NCBI GenBank assembly: GCA_003009755.1
Contig: PXUB01000001.1
Coordinates: 32,001-96,000 of the forward strand
DNA length: 64,000 bases
Source: Thermoplasmatales archaeon SW_10_69_26
GTDB taxonomy: Archaea > Thermoplasmatota > SW-10-69-26
Direction of reading: 5' to 3'
Position 1 is the first letter of the stretch; each line of letters begins with the position of its first letter. The position numbers and the translations under genes are program-made. A model generated the notes under the pieces. It was not told the DNA's origin and searched no databases. It saw only the letters and a program-made list of their open reading frames with translations. This document shows positions 1,384 through 11,155 of the stretch, in pieces.

Positions 1384-2751
1384 TCAGGGTCCCAGCTCGT
1401 CGGGCAGATCGCCCATGTCGAGCTGCTGCATCAACCGTTTCTGCATGCCGCGGTCGCCCGACAAGCCTTCGATCGCGCGCTGGCTCATCTCGTAGTACTT
1501 GAGCAGCTCTTTGACGTCCTCGGGCTCGCAGCCGCTGCCCGTCGCGATGCGGCGCAGGCGTGAGCCTTTGATCTCGTCGGGGTTGGACATCTCCCAGTCC
1601 GTCATGGAGTCCATGATGATCTGGAACTGCTCCATCTGCTCCTCGGATTGAGCCATCTGGTCCTTGGGGAGGTTCTGCTTCATGCCGCCGATGCCGGGGA
1701 TCATGTCCACGATCTTGTTCATCGGCCCCATGTTGGAGAGCATCTCCATCTGGTCCTTCAGCTCGTGGAGCGTGAAGTCGCCCTCGAGGATCTTCTCGGC
1801 CGTCTCCTCGGCCTTGTCCTCGTCCTCGACGGCGTGCTGGGCCTTCTCGAGCAGGGTCTGGATGTCCCCCATGCCCAGCAGGCGGGAGATGAAGCGCTCG
1901 GCGTCGAAGGTCTCGATGTCGGCCAAGTCCTCGCCGGTCCCGACGAACACGATCGGGGCGCCGGTCTCGGAGACGGCGGACAGCGCGCCGCCCCCCTTGG
2001 CCGACCCGTCGATCTTGGTGAGGATGACGCCGGAGACGTCGACGGCGTCGTTGAACGCCTCGGCCTGGGGACCGGCTTGTTGACCGACGGTCGCGTCGAT
2101 GACGAGGATCTTCTCGTCGGGGTCGGCGACCTCGAAGACATCCTCCATCTCCTGGATGAGGTCGTCCTCGAGGCTGTGGCGACCGCTGGTGTCGACGATC
2201 TGGATGTCGGTGCGGTCCCGGAGCTCGGCGAGGCCCTCGTCGACGATCTTGGCGGCGTCGTCGTCACCGGCTTCCTTGTCCCCGTAGAAGGGGGCGTCGA
2301 CCTGGTCGCTGATCTGCTGCAGCTGGTCGTAGGCCGCCGGTCGGTGCACGTCGGCGGCGACGAGGCCGACCTGGAGGCCGCGCTGCTGGAAGTACTGGGC
2401 CAGCTTGCCGGCCGTGGTGGTCTTCCCTTGCCCGTAGAGACCGACGAGCATGATCGTCTGCGGCTTGAGCTCGATCTCTCGGCTCTCGCCGAGCACCTGG
2501 ACGAGCTCGTCGTGGACGATGCGGATGACGTGTTCGCGGGGGCTGGCGCCGGCGGCCGGCTCCTCCTCGAGGGCGCGCTCCTTGATCGAGCGCGTCATCT
2601 GGAGCGCCAGCTTGACGTTGACGTCGGCCTGGAGGAGCGCCCGCTGGATCTCGCGGACGATCTCCTCGATCAGGTCCTCGTCGACGCGGTTGGCGTTGGC
2701 CACCTTGGCGAGGGTGTCCCGCAAGTTCTCGCTGAGCGAGTCGAGGACCAC
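1384..2751 (-). CDS. srp54: Signal recognition particle protein SRP54
   Basis: ALLQADVN, GLYGQGKTTT, DTSGRH, TKIDGSAKGGGALS, M-domain SMT..E and RIATGSG; GTG start inferred. Confidence 0.97.
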   Translation of the reverse strand: MVLDSLSENLRDTLAKVANANRVDEDLIEEIVREIQRALLQADVNVKLALQMTRSIKERALEEEPAAGASPREHVIRIVHDELVQVLGESREIELKPQTIMLVGLYGQGKTTTAGKLAQYFQQRGLQVGLVAADVHRPAAYDQLQQISDQVDAPFYGDKEAGDDDAAKIVDEGLAELRDRTDIQIVDTSGRHSLEDDLIQEMEDVFEVADPDEKILVIDATVGQQAGPQAEAFNDAVDVSGVILTKIDGSAKGGGALSAVSETGAPIVFVGTGEDLADIETFDAERFISRLLGMGDIQTLLEKAQHAVEDEDKAEETAEKILEGDFTLHELKDQMEMLSNMGPMNKIVDMIPGIGGMKQNLPKDQMAQSEEQMEQFQIIMDSMTDWEMSNPDEIKGSRLRRIATGSGCEPEDVKELLKYYEMSQRAIEGLSGDRGMQKRLMQQLDMGDLPDELGP

Positions 2752-2824
2752 GCTTGGAACGAGCTGGCGGCTCGTCATAAAGCTTCGGTGGACGGCCGGC
2801 GGTGACAGCCCGCTGGGCGGGCGT

Positions 2825-4060
2825 TCACCCGCTCGTGGCCCGCGGTCGGGGCCGGTCGGCCGCCAGACAGGCGCGCTCGGCGGCCTGCAGGCGGGGGGCG
2901 AGCCCGAGCGCGAGCGGGCGGGCGAGGTGGCGGCGGGCGCTGGGGTCGGCCTCGTGCCAGCGTGGGGGGCGCTTGCTGGTCTCGCCGGGCTGGCGCGTCC
3001 CGCAGCGGGGGCACCGGTAGCCGGCCTCGTGCCCGATCGAGCGCATGTGGCCCCCGCAGCCGGGACAGGCGGGCGCCTGGGTGCCCTCGGCGGGCACGTG
3101 GAACAGCTTCTCCAGGTTGACCTGGCGGCCGGCGTCCTTGAGCGATCCCAGCGCGAGCAGGCGGTCGCCGGGTTCCACGGCTCGCAAACCGGTCCGCAGG
3201 TCGCCGGTGGGCTCGAAGGCGAGCACGGTGCGCTCGGCCTCGCGGGGCGTGCGCGTGGCCAGGCGGACGTGGCCGCCCTCGAGCCGCTGGGGCTCGTCAG
3301 CGGCAACGAGCGGTTGCAGGCTGGCCGCCGCGAGGTGGTCGTCGCTGGCTTGGTTGGTGACGAAGGTATAGGCTTGCTCGATCGGTTCCTCGGCCAGGCG
3401 GGCCGCGCGGTCGGCGAGGTCGTCGGGCTCGCTGGCCCGCAGGCCGAGGAGGAGGGGGCCTGGGGTGCGGGGGGCGACGAGGGCATGGTCCTCGCGGGCG
3501 TCGTAGGCGTCGAAGACGGCCTCGTGGTGGGTGTCGAGTTCGCGGGCGTGGCGAGCGTTGATCGCTCGCGGCGTGCCCCGTGCCTTGGGGTGGCGGTAGG
3601 CGATCCGTGTGTAGGTGGCCGAGGGGCCGGGCCGCCAGGCGGCGGCGCACAGGCACCCGACCAGGCCGCGACCGGTGCCGGCGGTCCAGGTGGGCACGTC
3701 GGCGAGGGCCGAGCGGGCCTCGTCGAGGCCGACGCGTTCGCGTACGCCGCGCTCGTACCAGGCCGGGGCCGGCGGCTCGGAGAGGACGGCCAGGCCGGCG
3801 CCTTTGCCCTCGGCGATGCGGGCGTGGTCGTCGACGACGGCGGCCGCGGTCTCGAGCACCGTCTCGGGGTGGAGGTCCCTCGAGAGAGGGATCGCGACGG
3901 CGGCGTTGCCGCGCGTCTTCCAGGGGTTGTCGGGATCGAGGCGGACCAGACGCGGCCGGCCATCCAACGCGTCGGGGCCGAGCCGATCGGCGATGCAGGC
4001 GGCGGCGTAGGTGGTGCATCCCCCCTGGGGGCCGTCGGTGTCGTCCAGCGTCAACAGCAC
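2825..4060 (-). CDS. tiaS: tRNA(Ile2) 2-agmatinylcytidine synthetase
   Basis: LDDTD..GGCTTY, PRLVRL.P.NPWKTRGNAAV, TNQASDDH, FEPTG, C-terminal CPGC..CPRC Zn ribbon. Confidence 0.93.
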   Translation of the reverse strand: MLLTLDDTDGPQGGCTTYAAACIADRLGPDALDGRPRLVRLDPDNPWKTRGNAAVAIPLSRDLHPETVLETAAAVVDDHARIAEGKGAGLAVLSEPPAPAWYERGVRERVGLDEARSALADVPTWTAGTGRGLVGCLCAAAWRPGPSATYTRIAYRHPKARGTPRAINARHARELDTHHEAVFDAYDAREDHALVAPRTPGPLLLGLRASEPDDLADRAARLAEEPIEQAYTFVTNQASDDHLAAASLQPLVAADEPQRLEGGHVRLATRTPREAERTVLAFEPTGDLRTGLRAVEPGDRLLALGSLKDAGRQVNLEKLFHVPAEGTQAPACPGCGGHMRSIGHEAGYRCPRCGTRQPGETSKRPPRWHEADPSARRHLARPLALGLAPRLQAAERACLAADRPRPRATSG

Positions 4061-4064
4061 CGGA

Positions 4065-7000
4065 TCAGCCTCCGGCCACGCGGTCGACGGTGCGGGAGCC
4101 GCCGGGGTCCAGCTGGTCGAGGGCGTCGGCGAAGGCGCTTGCGTCGGGGTAGCGGTCCTCGGGGTCGCGGGCCAGGGCCTTGGCGAGGACCTCGTTGACG
4201 GCGGCGGGGACGCCGTCGATCGGGAGCCGGACGTCGCGTTCGATCAGCTCCTCGGGGGGAGGCGTGGTGTCGGTCTGCAGGCCGAGGTGGTGCTCGCCGG
4301 TGAGGAGGTTGTAGACGAGGGCGCCGGCGGCGTAGACGTCGGCTTGGGGACCGGGCGGGTCGCCGAGGAGTTGTTCGGGCGCCATGTAGCGCGGCGTGCC
4401 GACGAAGGCGTCCTCCTGTCCGGGCGGTTCGTCGCGGCGGACGGCGACGCCGAAGTCGGTGATCTTGGCGGTCCCGTCGGGGGTGAGCAGGATGTTGGAG
4501 GGCTTGAGGTCGCGGTGCACGATGCCGGCCTCGTGGAGGGCAGCCAAGCCGTCGAGCACCTCGGCGGCCATCGGCAGGGCCTGTTTGGTCTCCATCGCCT
4601 GGTCGGTGCGGTCGGCGAGCGTGCCGCCCTCGATGTACTCCATGACGAGCAGCAGCCGGCCTTCCTCCTCGATGACGTCGTGCACGACGACGACGTTGCG
4701 GTGCTGGAGGTTGGCGGCGGTCTTGGCCTCGTGCAACAGGAGCTCGCGGGCGTCGGCGCCGACGTTCTCGAGGTCCTTGAGGACGACGTCGCGCTCGAGC
4801 ACGCTGTCCTCGGCGAGGTAGGTCGTGCCGAACCCGCCCTCGCCGAGGACGCGTTCGACGCGGAAACGGTCCACCTTGCGTGGCATGAAGCCGTGGGCAA
4901 CGGTGGCGCTGCCGTCGTCGGCGGCGACCGGCGAGGCGCTGGCGGGGCTCGTGGAGAACTCGGTGGGTCCGGTCCCGGTCCCCGTCTCCTCGCGGCGGCG
5001 GTGGTACCAGATGCCACCGGCGGCGGCGAGCCCGAGCAGTACGGCCAAGCCGAGGCCGCCGGCGAGGTAGGGGTTGTCGCTGGCGGCGCGTGTGGCGAGC
5101 GTCAGGGGGCTGGGCTCGGAGATGTCGAAGGTGCGCTGGACCTCTTCGCCGCTGGCGGGCGAGACGAGCGCGCGGTCGGGGTCGGCGGTCTCGGCGACGA
5201 TGGTGCCCGTGAACGAGCGGGGGGCCTCCGGCACGAACGAGAGCATCACGGTCCGGTTGGCGGGTTCGCCGGCGCGGAGGTTGACGTCCTGGACAGCCAA
5301 GGCCTGCGAGCCCGAGCGCAACGAGAACCGCAGGGAGACGTCGCCGGGCGGGTCGTCGCCGGTGAGGGCCAACTCGATCGTGCTCGTCGTGCCGGCCTCG
5401 AGGTCGGTGTCGGTGACGGTCCACGTGACGTGGGCCGGGGCTGGTCGGACGTCCAAGGCGAGGGGGGTCGGGTCGGAGCCGACCGGCGCCATCAGGATAG
5501 CATCCGAGCGGTCCTGGTCGGCTTCGACGAACAGCTGGCCCTGTTCGCGCGGTTGGAGCACGATCTCCTCGGGGCCGCCCGGCACGACGGGGGCGTTGGG
5601 TTCGACCGTCATCGTGCGGCCGATGCCGTTGGCGACGGTGATCTCGGCCAGCGAGCCGCGCGTGAAGGACAGCTGGGCGGGCACGGTGCAGACGTCGGCG
5701 GGGCAGTCGCCGCTGAACGTGGCCACGGTCTCGTTCCGCCAGGCCTGCTCGCTGGGGGAGAGCACGGTGCGTTGGCGGGTGGCGTTCAGGTCGCCGTCGG
5801 AGACGTGCAGCGTGACGTTGTAGACGCGGGGGGCCTGGCCGGGCAGCGTAAGCCACGCGCCGGTCTGGCCGCTGTCGTCGTCGACGGACCACCAGTAGGT
5901 CAGGTCCTCGTCGTCGGGATCGCTGGTCTCGTTGGCGGTCAGGGCCAAGCGACCGTCCTCGGTGGCCCGTTGCGTGATGCTGGGTTGAGGGGGGAGGTTG
6001 ATCTCCATCGTCCGCGAGGCGGTGACCTGGGAGGAGCCGTCGTCGACGGTGAGGTGGATGGTGTGGTTGCCGGAGGTGGTGAAGCGGTGGGTGACGGTGG
6101 AGCCTCGCTTGACCGGGCCCTCGTCGAAGCGCCAGGTGTAGGTGAGCGGGGAGCGGTCCGGGTCCTGGGACCCGCGGGCGTCGAAGACGTGGCCTTCGCC
6201 CTGCTGCCACGCGACGGTGAACTGGGCTTCGGGGGGTCGGTCCTTGCCCAGCATGCGGAGCTCGCCGTCGGGGCCGGCCCAGAGGACGCCGCCACCGTCG
6301 GCGATCGCGATGCCGGTCGGGATCTGCGAGCAGCCGGAGGGGGTCAGCGTCTTCGTCCACCGGGAGTCCAGCAACCGACGGTCCTGGTGGGGGTGGCCGA
6401 CGAGGGAGCGGATGACGGCCACGCCGCGCTCGGCCGAGCAGACGTCGGCGAGGTAGATGTCGCCGTTGGCGTCGACGGCGGGTTGGCCGAGGAGGGGGCC
6501 GAACACGTTGCCCAGTGACTTGATGTGGGCGCCGCCGAGCGTGACGATGTGGATGGACCCGCCGGCGTCGACGATGAACACGGGCTGGCTGCCGTCGGCG
6601 CCCCATCCGACGGTCGGGGCCGCGTAGATCTGGCCGTCGAGCTCGGAGCCGGGCCGTTCGGCGTCGCCGGTGCGCCAGGCGACGTCCCCGCTGGCTCGGT
6701 CCACGGCGACGACCTCTTCGTCCCCCATGACGAGGGCGATCGACGAACCGGGAGCCAGGGAGACGCCGCGCGGCGTGCAGTTGCAGTCGATGCGATCCTC
6801 GACGCTGAGCGAGCCGGCGGAGAGCTCGACGATGCCGCCCTCCTGGATGGCGACGATCGTGTCGTCGTTGTCGACGGCGACCGGGGGGCCCGGCGTGGGG
6901 CCCGGCGTCGAGGAGAGGGGCGGATCGTAGTTCGTCGGCTCCTGGAGGCTGCGCTCGTCGACGATGTCCCCCTGGGTGGTGACGGCCAGCACCGTCCAGG

Positions 7001-7856
7001 GCTCCCGGACGGTGTAGATCCGGCCGTCGGGGTCGACGACGGGGCCGGAGAGCAGCTCGCGGTCGCCGTCGATCTCGGTCTGCCAGGCCTCGGCGCGTTC
7101 CGGGTTGACGCCGCGGAGCTCGCCGTCGCCGGTGGCGGCGATGACCAAGCCCTCGGGCGTCGAGGCGGGCGGGAACGGGACCGAGGATCCCAGACGCAGT
7201 GGGGGGTCCCACAGCGGGTCACCGTCGGAGGTGAACCGGTAGGCGAGCCCGCTCCAAGTGATGGCGGTCACGTTGCCGTCCTCGTCGACGATCGGGTCGT
7301 GGAACGGCTGGTCGTCGGAGGAGCGGGCCGACCATCGCACGAGGTCGACCTGCTGGGGGCCGATGTTGAGCGATCGGCCGGAGTGCTGGGCGTCGGCGCC
7401 GTGCTGGGGCCAGGCGGGGCCGAGGCCGCCGGCGACGGGCTCGTCGGCGTGGACGAAGAAGATCGTGGAGCTGGAGCCGGTGATCTCGAGCTCGGTCGCG
7501 TTGTTGCCGGTGTCGTTGCGCGCGCTGTCGACGCTCACCGAGTGCAGCCCGGGTTGGGTCTGGGAGGGCAACGGGACGTCGATCGTGCCGGTCACGAGCG
7601 AGGAGCGGTCGGAGACGAGCGTGCGCGAGATCGAGGAGGCTTGCCGGCGGTCGTCGGGGTTCTCGACGCCGACGGTCACGTTGAGCCGGTCGACCGTCGT
7701 GTTGATCGTGAGCTGGACCTCGATCGTGGCGTCGGAGGGCCCGACGACGAGGGGCGTGGCCTGCATCTCGACGACCGCGACCTCGTCGGAGGACTGGGCC
7801 GCGGCCGGAGCGGAGAACAGCGTTCCTGCGGCCAAGAGGGCGAGGACCAACGTCAA
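4065..7856 (-). CDS. Membrane-anchored Hanks-type Ser/Thr kinase with extracellular PQQ-like beta-propeller and PKD/Ig domains
   Basis: Signal peptide; WPQHGADAQHSG propeller start; PKD FDARGSQDPD..YTWRF; TM helix then RRR; kinase GEGGFG, HRDLKPSN, DFG, GTPRYMAPE; start uncertain. Confidence 0.92.
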   Translation of the reverse strand: MTLVLALLAAGTLFSAPAAAQSSDEVAVVEMQATPLVVGPSDATIEVQLTINTTVDRLNVTVGVENPDDRRQASSISRTLVSDRSSLVTGTIDVPLPSQTQPGLHSVSVDSARNDTGNNATELEITGSSSTIFFVHADEPVAGGLGPAWPQHGADAQHSGRSLNIGPQQVDLVRWSARSSDDQPFHDPIVDEDGNVTAITWSGLAYRFTSDGDPLWDPPLRLGSSVPFPPASTPEGLVIAATGDGELRGVNPERAEAWQTEIDGDRELLSGPVVDPDGRIYTVREPWTVLAVTTQGDIVDERSLQEPTNYDPPLSSTPGPTPGPPVAVDNDDTIVAIQEGGIVELSAGSLSVEDRIDCNCTPRGVSLAPGSSIALVMGDEEVVAVDRASGDVAWRTGDAERPGSELDGQIYAAPTVGWGADGSQPVFIVDAGGSIHIVTLGGAHIKSLGNVFGPLLGQPAVDANGDIYLADVCSAERGVAVIRSLVGHPHQDRRLLDSRWTKTLTPSGCSQIPTGIAIADGGGVLWAGPDGELRMLGKDRPPEAQFTVAWQQGEGHVFDARGSQDPDRSPLTYTWRFDEGPVKRGSTVTHRFTTSGNHTIHLTVDDGSSQVTASRTMEINLPPQPSITQRATEDGRLALTANETSDPDDEDLTYWWSVDDDSGQTGAWLTLPGQAPRVYNVTLHVSDGDLNATRQRTVLSPSEQAWRNETVATFSGDCPADVCTVPAQLSFTRGSLAEITVANGIGRTMTVEPNAPVVPGGPEEIVLQPREQGQLFVEADQDRSDAILMAPVGSDPTPLALDVRPAPAHVTWTVTDTDLEAGTTSTIELALTGDDPPGDVSLRFSLRSGSQALAVQDVNLRAGEPANRTVMLSFVPEAPRSFTGTIVAETADPDRALVSPASGEEVQRTFDISEPSPLTLATRAASDNPYLAGGLGLAVLLGLAAAGGIWYHRRREETGTGTGPTEFSTSPASASPVAADDGSATVAHGFMPRKVDRFRVERVLGEGGFGTTYLAEDSVLERDVVLKDLENVGADARELLLHEAKTAANLQHRNVVVVHDVIEEEGRLLLVMEYIEGGTLADRTDQAMETKQALPMAAEVLDGLAALHEAGIVHRDLKPSNILLTPDGTAKITDFGVAVRRDEPPGQEDAFVGTPRYMAPEQLLGDPPGPQADVYAAGALVYNLLTGEHHLGLQTDTTPPPEELIERDVRLPIDGVPAAVNEVLAKALARDPEDRYPDASAFADALDQLDPGGSRTVDRVAGG

Positions 7857-7995
7857 GGTCGCCGCGCCGTGGCGAGCTCGTGCGCGCGGGTGCAGGATGG
7901 CTGTGCCCCTCCCAAGCCCATTCCGACGGGGAGGACGTAACGTTTGCGGTCCCGGCCTCCGGCTCTCGGGGCCTCAGGGGGCCCGCAGGGGCTCA

Positions 7996-8312
7996 GCCGT
8001 GGGAGAGGGAAGGGATGACCCGGCCCCACGACGGGACCCGCTGCCGGCACCCAGGCGAGCGCGAGCTCCCCAGGCCCCGGCAGCGGGGGGATGCACACTG
8101 TGCGTATCGTCGATGGGATGTGGGATGGGACGGGTCGGGAGCCGGGTGGGCTTGGTGCCCACCGCCGCGATGGGCGTGTTGTATTTCAAAGCCGTGAAAG
8201 CTGACGAGAGGGAACGCCAACAGCCGGTTGCACGGTCTTCGGACGTTCAGATCGGACGTTTCCGTCGACACGGGAACCCCGTTCCAAGCGACGTCCTTCA
8301 CGACGTAGCCCC
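7996..8312. repeat. Intergenic tandem repeat copy 1 (promoter plus putative sRNA unit)
   Basis: Aligns with 8417-8678 (offset 367 over the core); copy 1 carries an extra ~50-bp hairpin at 8037-8088. Confidence 0.9.
8000..8160 (-). ncRNA. Putative structured small RNA 1
   Basis: TTTGAAAT at -30, AT at -11/-10, T/G start; 5' hairpin, 14-bp closing stem, C-rich loop, pyrimidine-rich 3' end; no conserved ORF. Confidence 0.5.
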
Positions 8313-8416
8313 CGACGACCGCGGGTCGATCGAGGGACGAGCTGCGACGCTGACGCCGGCGAGGAGCGGGAGCAAGCGCCTCCAGCTCCCCGACGAGAGG
8401 GGAACCTGCAAGCGTG

Positions 8417-8678
8417 GCCGTGAGAGGAGAAGGATGGCCCGGCCCCACGACGCGGAGGGATGCACTGTGCGTACCGTCGATGGGATGTGGGATGGGACGG
8501 GCCGGGAGCCGGGTGGGCTTGGTGCCCACCCCCGCGATGAGGGTGTTGTATTTCAAAGCCGTGAAAGCTGACAGCAGGATACGCCAACCGCCGGTTGCAA
8601 GGCTTGTCGACGTTCAGACGCGGCGTTTCCGCTGACAAGCGAACCCCGTTCCAGGCGGCCTCCTTGACGATGTAACCC
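8417..8678. repeat. Intergenic tandem repeat copy 2
   Basis: Near-identical core to 8089-8205, more diverged flanks. Confidence 0.9.
8421..8527 (-). ncRNA. Putative structured small RNA 2 (paralog)
   Basis: Same promoter spacing and predicted fold; A-U to G-U change keeps the stem. Confidence 0.5.
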
Positions 8679-8874
8679 GGCTCAGCGGTGGGCCCATCTT
8701 CCACTCCGAGCGGTGGATCGCAGCCCGGGCACCGCCGATGCAAGGCGAGGTGGTTGGGGTCGCAGCGGGCCACGAAGCGGGCGAGCCACGCCCGTGGTTG
8801 CCCGATGCAGCTGCTCGTGAGGCTAGGCTATCGTCCATCGCTTCCGGGGCCTCTCCCCAGCCGACGAGGGGCCC

Positions 8875-9639
8875 TCAGGGGTTCCGGAAGAGGAGCAACG
8901 AGCGCCCGACGCCGATCACGTCGCCGTGGGTGAGCTCGACCTCGTCGCCGCCGCGCAGCTCCTGGTCCCAGTTGACGATGGTGCCGTTGAGGCTCTCGGC
9001 GTCGCGCAGGCGGAACGTGCCGCCTTCGTGGGTGAGGACGGCGTGCTTGCGCGAGATGAACAGGTCGTACTCGAGGGGGACGTCGACCTCCTCGCCGCCC
9101 ACCTGGCGTTCGCGGCCGACCAGCCACTCCATCGGTTCGGCCTTGCTCCGCAACGGGAACACGCGGCCCTCGCGGATCCCGCGGATGAGGATGAGCTGGG
9201 CGAGCGCGTCCTCGGTCTCGGGGGTCTCGGGCTCGGATTGCTGGACGCGCGTGCGGTCGGGCACGCCGCCGGCGGCGGACTCCATGGCGAGGTTGCCCAG
9301 CGTGCGGACCTCCTCGAGCACCATGAACAGGTGGTCCTCGCGGGCGTAGTACTCCTTCGTGTGGCTGCCTTCGCCCTGGGCGACGCGGGTCTCGACGAGG
9401 TCGACCTCCTCGAGCTTGTCGATGTGGCTGAGGATCGCTTGACGGGTGAGGGGGATCTCGCGGGTGTCGCTCTCGGCGTCCTTGGACGTCTCCTCGCGGT
9501 AGGCCTCGATCTCGCCCACGTTCTTCGGTGTGGTGAGCTGGCGGAGGATGTCGAGGCGTTGGCGGTTGCCGAGCGCGGAGAGGACCAGGGACAGGCGCTC
9601 GGTGTCCACCTTGCCACCGGGGGATTGGGGATCCGGCAT
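8875..9639 (-). CDS. ArsR-like winged-HTH plus FHA domain regulator
   Basis: LSALGNRQRLDILRQL and RQAILSHIDKLEEVDLV HTH; FHA VGRE, ISRKHA, SLNGT. Confidence 0.9.
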   Translation of the reverse strand: MPDPQSPGGKVDTERLSLVLSALGNRQRLDILRQLTTPKNVGEIEAYREETSKDAESDTREIPLTRQAILSHIDKLEEVDLVETRVAQGEGSHTKEYYAREDHLFMVLEEVRTLGNLAMESAAGGVPDRTRVQQSEPETPETEDALAQLILIRGIREGRVFPLRSKAEPMEWLVGRERQVGGEEVDVPLEYDLFISRKHAVLTHEGGTFRLRDAESLNGTIVNWDQELRGGDEVELTHGDVIGVGRSLLLFRNP

Positions 9640-10111: not shown

Positions 10112-11155
10112 GTGGACGGCTCTCGCCGCTGGTGGTGGCCGGCCATGGCCCTGCTGGCGCTCGGGCTCGTGGCTGGGACCGTCACCGCTCACGTCGAGTA
10201 CGTGGCCTCCGAGGGCGACCCCGTCGGCCCCCTGGACCTGTGGGGAGCCGTGGCCTCGGACCCGCTGGGCCTCACCCTGATCGCCACCACGGTCGTCGCC
10301 GCCGCGGCGGCCGGGTTCGCGTGGCGCCGGTGGGGCGAGCGGATCCCCGACGTGGACGTGCTGCGCGAGGTGCTCGACGGCTACGAGGACCTCGTCCCCT
10401 GGATGATCCGCCTCAGCGTCGGCGTTCCCCTCGTCGGTGCGGGCTTCTCCGGGTACCTGTTGACGCCGGCGTTGCCCGTCGAGCTGCGCCTGCTGCAGGT
10501 CCTCGTCGGGTTCCTGCTGCTCCTGGGCCTGACCACGCGAGGCGCCGCCCTGCTGGGCCTGGTGGGCTGGTTGTCGGTCTTCGGCGTTTACGGTCCCACG
10601 CTGTTCTTGGCCGGCGAGTACACCGGCGCGTTCATCGCGTTGATCCTCGTCGGGCCCGGCCGGCCGAGCCTCGACCACATGCTCGAGCAGGTGGCCGAGG
10701 ACGAGGGCACCTGGTACCATCGGGTCGATCCCATCCACGAGGCCGGCGAGCGGTTCCGGGCCTTCGTCGCGCCGGCACGCCCGTGGGCGCCGGTGGCGGT
10801 CCGCTTGACGTTGGGTGCCACGCTGGCTTACCTCGGCATCTGGGAGAAGATCCTCGACCCGGGGCCCGCGATCGCGTTGGCCCGCGATCTGGGCCTGCCC
10901 GGCTCGATCTCGGCCGAGGCCTGGGTCGTGGGCGCCGGGCTCGTCGAGCTCGGCGTCGGCCTGCTGCTCGTGGCGGGGCTGTTCACGCGCGCCGCGAGCG
11001 CGGCCGCCTTCCTCGTGCTGACGGTCACCTTGTTCGCGTTGCCCAACGACCCCGTGCTGGCGCACGTTTCCCTGTTCGGGCTCGCCAGCGTCGTCTTCAC
11101 GTGGGGCGTCGGTCCCCTCAGCCTCGACCGGTCCATGCAGACGGGTGATGGCTGA
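10112..11155 (+). CDS. DoxX-family membrane protein (haloarchaeal double-DoxX type)
   Basis: WMIRLSVGVPLVGAGFSGY, GPGRPSLD, EKILDPG, DPVLAHVSLFGLAS; TTAA about 27 nt upstream. Confidence 0.8.
   Translation: MDGSRRWWWPAMALLALGLVAGTVTAHVEYVASEGDPVGPLDLWGAVASDPLGLTLIATTVVAAAAAGFAWRRWGERIPDVDVLREVLDGYEDLVPWMIRLSVGVPLVGAGFSGYLLTPALPVELRLLQVLVGFLLLLGLTTRGAALLGLVGWLSVFGVYGPTLFLAGEYTGAFIALILVGPGRPSLDHMLEQVAEDEGTWYHRVDPIHEAGERFRAFVAPARPWAPVAVRLTLGATLAYLGIWEKILDPGPAIALARDLGLPGSISAEAWVVGAGLVELGVGLLLVAGLFTRAASAAAFLVLTVTLFALPNDPVLAHVSLFGLASVVFTWGVGPLSLDRSMQTGDG

Follow-up and report, generated by a model that had tools for sequence, protein, structure and literature searches.

What is encoded by a short intergenic segment that has been duplicated in tandem between the gene for a receptor-type Ser/Thr protein kinase and the gene for a probable FHA-domain regulator? 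The segment lies on the minus strand around positions 7,996 to 8,678 of a 64,000-nucleotide stretch from Thermoplasmatales archaeon SW_10_69_26 (contig PXUB01000001.1, positions 32,001 to 96,000 of the forward strand); we refer to this entire analysed stretch of DNA as the window. An earlier reading of the window, hereafter the original prediction, had proposed two paralogous, structured small RNA (sRNA) genes at this place. Our analysis leads us to regard an independently transcribed, structured sRNA as the likely product of each copy. The proposal of two paralogous genes drew support from promoter spacing, a TATA element of the kind found at tRNA genes, a tail motif, a strand-biased fold and synteny, and drew none from compensatory covariation. 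The two copies appear to represent a new archaeal intergenic sRNA family which, as far as searched, is restricted to one family of uncultured halophilic Thermoplasmata-type archaea. To our knowledge, no sRNA with a defined family has been described for Thermoplasmata-type archaea of hypersaline habitats, and we know of few such archaeal sRNAs at all.

For this RNA family, the ends can be predicted, the fold is conserved, the motif can be counted, and the location between a kinase and a probable FHA factor is constant. The family offers a concrete, testable hypothesis regarding how eukaryote-like kinase signaling in archaea may reach gene expression. It would also furnish a usable promoter and terminator grammar for an uncultured lineage, namely a TTSAAATAC-type TATA box and UUCUC after stems.

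The source genome comprises 2.8 Mb in 49 contigs, with a GC content of 69.3% and a completeness of 95%, and the stretch occurs in halite metagenomes. The host is an uncultured, high-GC, halophilic Thermoplasmata-type archaeon, and the promoter is therefore to be read as archaeal. Bacterial promoter readings of the upstream region, of the sigma-54 and extracytoplasmic function (ECF) types, were dropped for the same reason.

Anatomy of the Duplicated Locus

A repeat search of the window revealed a tandem duplication on the minus strand with a unit of 367 nt. Its main component is a direct repeat of 216 nt with 86% identity (8096-8311 versus 8463-8678, spacing 367), and a second repeated piece of 31 nt with 87% identity (8003-8033 versus 8422-8452) corresponds to the tail. 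The original prediction had recognized neither the archaeal host nor the kinase/FHA-regulator setting, nor that the repeat takes in upstream DNA. The unit begins at 8678 and 8311, respectively, some 150 nt ahead of each proposed start; what is duplicated is a conserved upstream region plus the RNA, not the RNA alone. The principal features are as follows, the covariance model R1 being the one used in the homologue searches described below.

8420..8527, minus strand: sRNA copy A, the upstream sibling, approximately 100-108 nt, predicted start G8527; R1 match 8527-8418, 108.6 bits
8431-8426, minus strand: TTCTCC, within or after which the 3′ end of copy A is predicted
7998..8160, minus strand: sRNA copy B, the downstream sibling, approximately 155-163 nt, predicted start G8160, tail CAUCCCUUCCCUCUCCC; R1 match 8160-7999, 76.4 bits
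8548..8557, minus strand: predicted TATA box of copy A, TTTGAAATAC, 20 nt before the predicted start
8181..8190, minus strand: predicted TATA box of copy B, TTTGAAATAC, on the same basis

Most structural particulars of the original prediction agree with the window sequence and with the folds computed here. The box TTTGAAATAC, at 8557-8548 and 8190-8181, has its first T 30 nt ahead of G8527 and G8160, and AT stands at −11/−10 in both window copies. Both folds contain the proposed 5′ hairpin GGGC-ACCAA-GCCC and the 13-bp stem with one bulge, in which the A-to-G change between the copies keeps pairing by yielding a G-U pair. The extra, self-contained hairpin ascribed to the downstream copy is found at 8087-8037 (−47.6 kcal/mol, z −5.1), and the C-rich stretch called invariant is unchanged, as UCCCAUCCCA, in all seven homologues. 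All eight GGATG positions on the plus strand, four per copy, are exact (8013, 8089, 8116, 8123, 8432, 8458, 8483, and 8490), and the interval 7950-8600 holds no others. RNA sizes of approximately 105 and 160 nt had been proposed; the same lengths are predicted here from the start and the pyrimidine tail.

Contigs from a different study bridge the tandem arrangement, one over 8176-8504 and another over 8369-8653. Because these independent contigs bridge both copies, the tandem is not an artefact of one assembly. A strain variant from halite joins a copy-A-like upstream segment, with 10 differences, to the spacer preceding copy B (8312-8377, 8582-8678), and another strain-variant contig carries an insertion behind 8311. 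The contigs compared here came from four DNA runs and yielded strain variants and bridging contigs only; no RNA run was listed as containing the stretch. The former variant suggests exchange or gene conversion between the copies, or another copy number in some strains.

Homologues, Synteny, and Novelty

BLAST searches over 41 genomes gave convincing matches only in two, designated G001 and G004. The covariance model R1, applied to 21 genomes of the class, recovered both window copies as well as single copies in G001, G004, and G002, and an unfiltered R1 search beside the FHA orthologues added diverged copies in G003 and G005 (E 0.0013 and 0.0072). In total, seven copies are present in all six genomes of family f1: the source genome has only two, both in the window, and the other five genomes have one each. 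No homologue of the RNA was found in the 15 other genomes of the class with default filters, a weak negative given that the same filters also missed G003 and G005. Pattern scans of the genome contigs returned only the two contigs already matched, and those of metagenome contigs returned nothing. Two pattern matches on viral contigs were discarded as chance; one is a bacterial-type terminator after a gene, and the other lies inside a probable coding stretch.

The genomic setting is conserved along with the RNA. In six of six genomes, the kinase orthologue directly follows the RNA, and in five the FHA orthologue precedes it; the FHA orthologue of G002 is on another contig. Orthologues of the kinase ectodomain occur in the same 6 of the 21 genomes of the class that carry the RNA. 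Conservation among the homologues starts at the predicted RNA start.

A scan against Rfam, which the original prediction had named as a check, matched no known family: Rfam 15 gave no matches in the whole window at gathering thresholds, and at E values up to 10 the interval 7850-8900 yielded just two chance-level matches, which scored 16.4 and 15.4 bits where the cut-off is 70. The string "Thermoplasm" has no occurrence in the main text of the halite sRNA study. The RNA was likewise not found described in the literature, in a search that was not aimed specifically at it.

Predicted Promoter, Upstream Region, and 3′ End

In a Thermoplasmata-type archaeon of 69% GC from halite, TTTGAAATAC is to be read as an archaeal TATA box. 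The pattern TT[GC]A[AT]ATAC precedes GGGC in all seven homologues, at a distance of 20 nt in five sequences and 21 nt in those of G003 and G005, and the sequence of the spacer between promoter and start is poorly conserved while its length holds. Within the 2.8-Mb genome, TT[GC]AAATAC occurs just seven times. Two of these occurrences are at the window copies, and the other five look promoter-like, standing for example 25-45 nt ahead of an ATG or GTG. The tRNA genes of the same genome carry comparable boxes, ..CCAAATAC, ..CTAAATAC, and ..CTTTTATCC, approximately 25 nt before the mature 5′ end. The copies thus display what marks an independent archaeal sRNA gene, namely a B recognition element (BRE)/TATA element at about −26, a fixed spacing, and a purine start.

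Upstream of the TATA box, approximately 110 nt are moderately conserved, and a TTCC-N3-4-GGAA inverted repeat recurs in G001, G004, G003, and G005. In the window, the upstream region contains the inverted repeats GGAAC-GGG-GTTCC and CAACCG-G-CGGTTG. These repeats are candidate transcription-factor binding sites and belong to the following elements.

8558..8678, minus strand: duplicated upstream region of copy A, part of the 216-nt repeat, with blocks conserved across the seven homologues
8652-8641, minus strand: inverted repeat GGAACGGGGTTC in the upstream region of copy A
8597-8585, minus strand: inverted repeat CAACCG-G-CGGTTG in the upstream region of copy A
8191..8311, minus strand: duplicated upstream region of copy B, with GGAACGGGGTTCC at 8285-8273

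The 3′ end has a counterpart in the tRNA genes as well. TTCT[CT] stands at the first base after 15 of the 51 predicted tRNAs of the source genome, compared to an expectation of 0.06, and is probably the lineage's transcription-termination or trailer signal, used in place of a long T run. The same motif is found within 25 nt past the last stem in five of the seven RNAs, with the window occurrence at 8431-8427. In G003 and G005, an extra GC-rich hairpin precedes the tail motif.

A Conserved, Strand-Biased Fold

The seven sequences share a common fold that consists of a 5′ hairpin (P1, outside G003 and G005), a closing stem of 12-14 bp (P2), and a pyrimidine tail. P2 encloses C-rich single strands, a GUGCA motif, and a variable hairpin. 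In the window copies, the predicted elements are arranged as follows.

8515..8527, minus strand: P1, the 5′ hairpin GGGC-ACCAA-GCCC of copy A (copy B: 8148-8160)
8501..8513, minus strand: 5′ strand of P2 in copy A, CCCGGCUCCCGGC, pairing with 8438-8451
8134-8146, minus strand: 5′ strand of P2 in copy B, pairing with 8019-8032
8479..8497, minus strand: C-rich unpaired stretch of copy A, UCCCAUCCCACAUCCCAUC, with two CAUCC (copy B: 8112-8130)
8037..8087, minus strand: variable hairpin, present in copy B and missing from copy A

The P1 stem is kept in five of seven homologues with differing loops. P2 comprises 13 pairs, and 100% of its cells are paired in the seven sequences; four pairs vary on one side with pairing retained. 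Over the model-guided alignment as a whole, 99.1% of 110 cells are paired, versus 34-55% when the partners are slid. Individual changes also preserve the helices: in G002, a C plus the bulge is replaced by a GU insertion which pairs, and the variable hairpin of G005 is longer by one pair than that of G003, owing to insertions on both sides. The interior of P2 contains a hairpin, unrelated in sequence, in all five other homologues as well; it precedes the GUGCA motif in G002, G003, and G005 and follows it in G001 and G004. Across the lineages, copy B included, the z values of the hairpins range from −5.1 to −0.2.

The fold is tied to one strand. All wobble pairs are G-U on the minus strand and would be A-C on the opposite strand. 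Copy B folds with −88.2 kcal/mol at z −3.85, compared to z −0.67 for the opposite strand, and the RNA strand has the more negative z in six of six comparisons (RNA versus opposite strand: −3.85/−0.67, −0.92/−0.06, −2.74/−0.51, −3.06/−0.59, −0.66/+1.75, and −3.84/−2.87). Kept pairing, strand-specific G-U pairs, and lineage-specific hairpins lend the predicted structure a softer form of support.

The CAUCC Motif

Each of the seven RNAs contains exactly four CAUCC, whereas the 150 nt upstream of each RNA contain none. Composition-matched shuffles would give 0.18-0.29 CAUCC, with at most 2 of 5,000 reaching four, and the genome-wide rate is 1.11 per kb per strand. While the number is constant, the four motifs are differently distributed over three places, the C-rich stretch, the GUGCAUCC site, and the tail.

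Window copies A and B: C-rich stretch 2, GUGCAUCC site 1, tail 1
G001 and G004: C-rich stretch 3, GUGCAUCC site 0, tail 1
G002: C-rich stretch 2, GUGCAUCC site 2, tail 0
G003 and G005: C-rich stretch 3, GUGCAUCC site 1, tail 0

A tandem (CAUCC)3 with a 5-nt period is found in genera g2 and g4, the latter being the genus of G003 and G005.

Pairing of CAUCC with the 3′ region of 16S rRNA, GGAUGGAUCACCUCCU, was considered and dropped, the match extending over only 5-7 nt, part of it within helix 45.

Proposed Mechanism and Competing Explanations

How might such RNAs be made and used? Reasoning from sequence, we infer their expression, their ends, their regulation, and their mode of action as follows. 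Each copy would constitute its own transcription unit, with the TATA box TTTGAAATAC 20 nt before a G start, and transcription would probably end in the UUCUCC-type pyrimidine tract past the last stem, giving RNAs of approximately 105 nt (A) and 160 nt (B). Four CAUCC(C) motifs, among them the invariant UCCCAUCCCA, would be left unpaired within the closing stem and the 3′ tail. Its fixed place between the kinase and FHA genes and the conserved upstream inverted repeats suggest that this kinase/FHA-regulator pair controls transcription of the RNA, acting on its promoter through these repeats. Acting in trans, the RNA itself would use its C-rich single strands to base-pair with G-rich sites, GGGAUGG or GGGUG for example, in the Shine-Dalgarno or start-codon regions of target mRNAs. 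Base pairing is the mode we favor; RoxS/RsaE-type C-rich sRNAs of Firmicutes act in this manner (PMC5419742). Taken as a whole, with sibling sRNA genes, control by the neighbors, and action through base pairing, we offer this account tentatively and put it slightly below an even chance; as stated at the outset, a structured sRNA with its own transcription is likely.

A number of observations weigh against this account. Some concern the RNA gene itself. AT at −11/−10, the place of the WW element in haloarchaeal promoters, is present in only four of seven homologues. The tail motif is inexact in copy B and G001, which have TTCCC or TTCCT instead. P1 is absent in two of seven homologues, G003 and G005, both genomes of genus g4, and the fold z is weak for copy A (−0.92) and for G002 (−0.66). 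Covariation, proposed earlier as a check, did not come to the aid of the structure: changes on both sides were seen in 0 of 17 pairs and changes on one side in 4, with RNAalifold giving the same count, in a set of seven similar sequences from four genera, all metagenome-assembled genomes, that is too small and too uniform to decide the matter and for which the shuffle control cannot discriminate.

Others concern regulation and action. In the N-terminal part of the putative regulator, the HTH_20 match (E 2.7e-4) and the ArsR/SmtB model match (E 5.2e-5) both fall below curated cut-offs. Pairing of the RNA with the 5′ region of the cognate kinase beats random windows only in G003 and G005, where 1 and 0 of 80 controls were as good. 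In the other five of seven, cofolding with this region was no better than with random windows, and no target was identified; a conserved interaction with the kinase mRNA is not supported. Finally, multivalent protein binding would account for four motifs at shifting positions no less well than a fixed seed.

This last point leads to the reading in which the same sRNA serves as a multivalent decoy, its four CAUCC(C) motifs titrating an RNA-binding protein, for instance as two dimers or a tetramer. Exactly four motifs in seven of seven RNAs despite shifting positions (2+1+1, 3+0+1, 2+2+0, and 3+1+0), the tandem (CAUCC)3 repeats of genera g2 and g4, and the lack of a conserved pairing with the neighboring mRNA all speak for it. 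We nevertheless consider it somewhat unlikely, as no candidate partner is at hand: CsrA (PF02599) had no matches in the source genome, in a search to which the control genomes responded, and the motifs do not sit in separate hairpin loops as they do in CsrB and RsmZ. We know of no protein-titrating sRNA described in archaea. That this is the first one, with CsrB-like logic, a C-rich-binding protein as its partner, and its synthesis switched by a Hanks-type receptor kinase via an FHA-wHTH (winged helix-turn-helix) factor, is unlikely; if true, it would wire archaeal Ser/Thr phosphorylation signaling to a post-transcriptional regulon via an sRNA. A different role for the transcript would be that of a cis-acting leader or attenuator of the kinase gene, in which transcription stops at P2 and the pyrimidine tract or reads through in a signal-dependent manner. 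The same-strand position directly upstream of the kinase orthologue in six of six genomes and the terminator-like appearance of P2 plus UUCUCC are in keeping with such a role. So is a match in G003 and G005, where CCAUCCUG, the third CAUCC, forms the exact complement of CAGGAUGG surrounding the kinase ATG (L025:2724-2741 with 3005-3014, and the equivalent in L024); this type of complementarity was not seen in the other four genomes. Yet a separate BRE/TATA-like motif stands before the kinase gene at a fixed distance to an in-frame codon in all six genomes, and the tandem units in the window are both complete, each having a TATA box and a tail of its own. The distance from RNA to kinase varies as well, from roughly 75 to 200 nt, and no conserved junction resembling a ligand pocket is evident, all of which makes a leader quite unlikely.

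The remaining explanations dispense with a functional noncoding RNA. If the element acted at the DNA level, as an operator array for the wHTH-FHA regulator or as a plus-strand G-quadruplex, the RNA would be incidental. GGATGG does occur once in the upstream region of four of seven homologues, the plus strand has at least four GGG tracts with short spacers, and the upstream inverted repeats are conserved. However, P2 pairing is kept via G-U pairs, and both a cruciform and the opposite strand would have A-C mismatches in their place. The minus strand gives the stronger fold in all six comparisons, and an array of binding sites leaves both the lineage-specific hairpins and the promoter/terminator frame unexplained; we regard this possibility as very unlikely. 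Two small protein-coding genes were also considered, given that one frame (GY[IV]VK..WNGV..SFHGFEIQH..HRRYAQ) is open across the 216-nt repeat in both copies, with 14 differences at third positions versus 8 and 9 at the others. The codon changes comprise 7 synonymous versus 15 non-synonymous ones, and there is neither a Pfam match nor a start codon at the conserved part. The frame includes TTT GAA ATA CAA, and approximately 24 of its 72 codons end in A or T, a GC3 of about 0.67 versus 0.81-0.94 in nearby genes. Within the block of highest conservation, a 2-nt indel (CA) separates the window copies from five of five other homologues; the lengths of other indels are not divisible by three, and the spacer of constant length shares no residues at the protein level. 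On the core indel, the low GC3, the codon changes, and the absent Pfam match, the coding reading was rejected and retains next to no credence. The same applies to a mobile or repetitive element resembling a miniature inverted-repeat transposable element (MITE), or a neutral local duplication without function. The tandem duplication in the source genome would fit. Dispersal of a MITE family, named in the original prediction as a refutation, was looked for and not found: the 2.8-Mb genome has only two local copies, the five other genomes each have one syntenic copy, neither terminal inverted repeats nor target duplications were seen, and viral contigs yielded no true homologues.

Relation to Known Systems

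The C-rich regions of RoxS and RsaE consist of unpaired UCCC/CCCC motifs, with G-rich ribosome-binding regions as partners. The RNA described here resembles them as a small RNA with its own promoter and terminator and several unpaired C-rich motifs. In contrast, RoxS and RsaE are bacterial, end in Rho-independent terminators, and use UCCC/CCCC, whereas here the host is archaeal, the motif is CAUCC(C), and a long stem closes the structure. With CsrB, RsmY, and RsmZ, the analogy drawn in the original prediction for a protein sponge, the likeness is one of logic only: a short motif is repeated in one RNA and turns over in position between homologues. Those RNAs present GGA in hairpin loops to CsrA, while CAUCC is placed in the single strands of junction and tail and CsrA was not found. 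The 6C RNA of Actinobacteria (which we take to be RF01066) also combines a high-GC host with C-rich unpaired stretches in a small conserved RNA. Its two hairpins with C-rich loops are not seen here, however, it gave no match at E values up to 10, and it belongs to the other domain.

Tandem sibling sRNAs are exemplified by OmrA/OmrB and PrrF1/PrrF2, and sRNAs beside a regulator by OxyS-oxyR and Qrr-luxO. The present locus shares with these the tandem paralogues with their own promoters and the adjoining regulator or sensor kinase. It differs from these bacterial systems, which rely on two-component or LysR regulators, in its Hanks-type kinase and FHA-wHTH protein, the putative regulators of the RNA. 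In archaea, the route from a kinase through an FHA protein to promoter control has a precedent (PMC5007285). STK_15650 with ST0829 of S. tokodaii and ArnA/ArnB of S. acidocaldarius likewise join a Ser/Thr kinase with an FHA protein that acts on promoters (PMC5007285, PMC6509490). There the FHA protein bears a zinc finger, archaellum genes are the output, and no sRNA is known to take part, whereas the protein here has a probable wHTH.

Neighboring Genes

The genes that flank the RNAs, together with the element that separates copy B from the kinase gene, are the following.

8875..9639, minus strand: upstream gene, probable wHTH and FHA-domain regulator, 254 aa from ATG 9639
4065..7898, minus strand: downstream gene, receptor-type Ser/Thr protein kinase according to profile matches
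7938..7949, minus strand: conserved CCGCAAACGTTA motif separating RNA B from the kinase gene, whose BRE/TATA it probably is

The FHA domain of the upstream protein is matched at E 5.7e-13. The kinase combines a signal-peptide-like N-terminus, PQQ-like and PKD domains, and a C-terminal Pkinase domain. The kinase gene probably has its own promoter, because in six of six genomes a CGCAAAGGTTA-type motif and a conserved in-frame ATC are separated by a fixed 44-48 nt. This ATC, at 7896-7898 on the minus strand, has equivalents in L003, L004, L019, L025, and L024; a G-rich stretch resembling a Shine-Dalgarno sequence lies ahead of it. The first canonical kinase start in the window is TTG 7856, 14 codons past the ATC. 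A non-canonical start codon is one possible reading of the conserved ATC, a conserved 5′ element another.

The pairing of a kinase with an FHA protein is not confined to this locus. The source genome encodes seven wHTH-FHA and five kinase-domain paralogues, with five adjacent kinase/FHA pairs, on contigs C8, C12, C13, C19, C25, and C43, and the relatives show the same pattern of pairing. This looks like an expanded, paired signaling module in family f1. Gaps within the other pairs are approximately 20-110 nt in three and larger in a divergent fourth. In a genome-wide search with the model, the gaps of the other pairs not themselves being examined, the RNA was found only within the window pair.

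Two further observations concern genes nearby. A gene for a DoxX-family membrane protein (10112-11155, plus strand) shares a divergent intergenic region with the FHA-wHTH gene. At 1384-3963 on the minus strand of the window, SRP54 domains account for residues 410-829 of an 859-aa open frame, the long N-terminal part of which may be either an over-called open reading frame in GC-rich DNA or an unusual extension.

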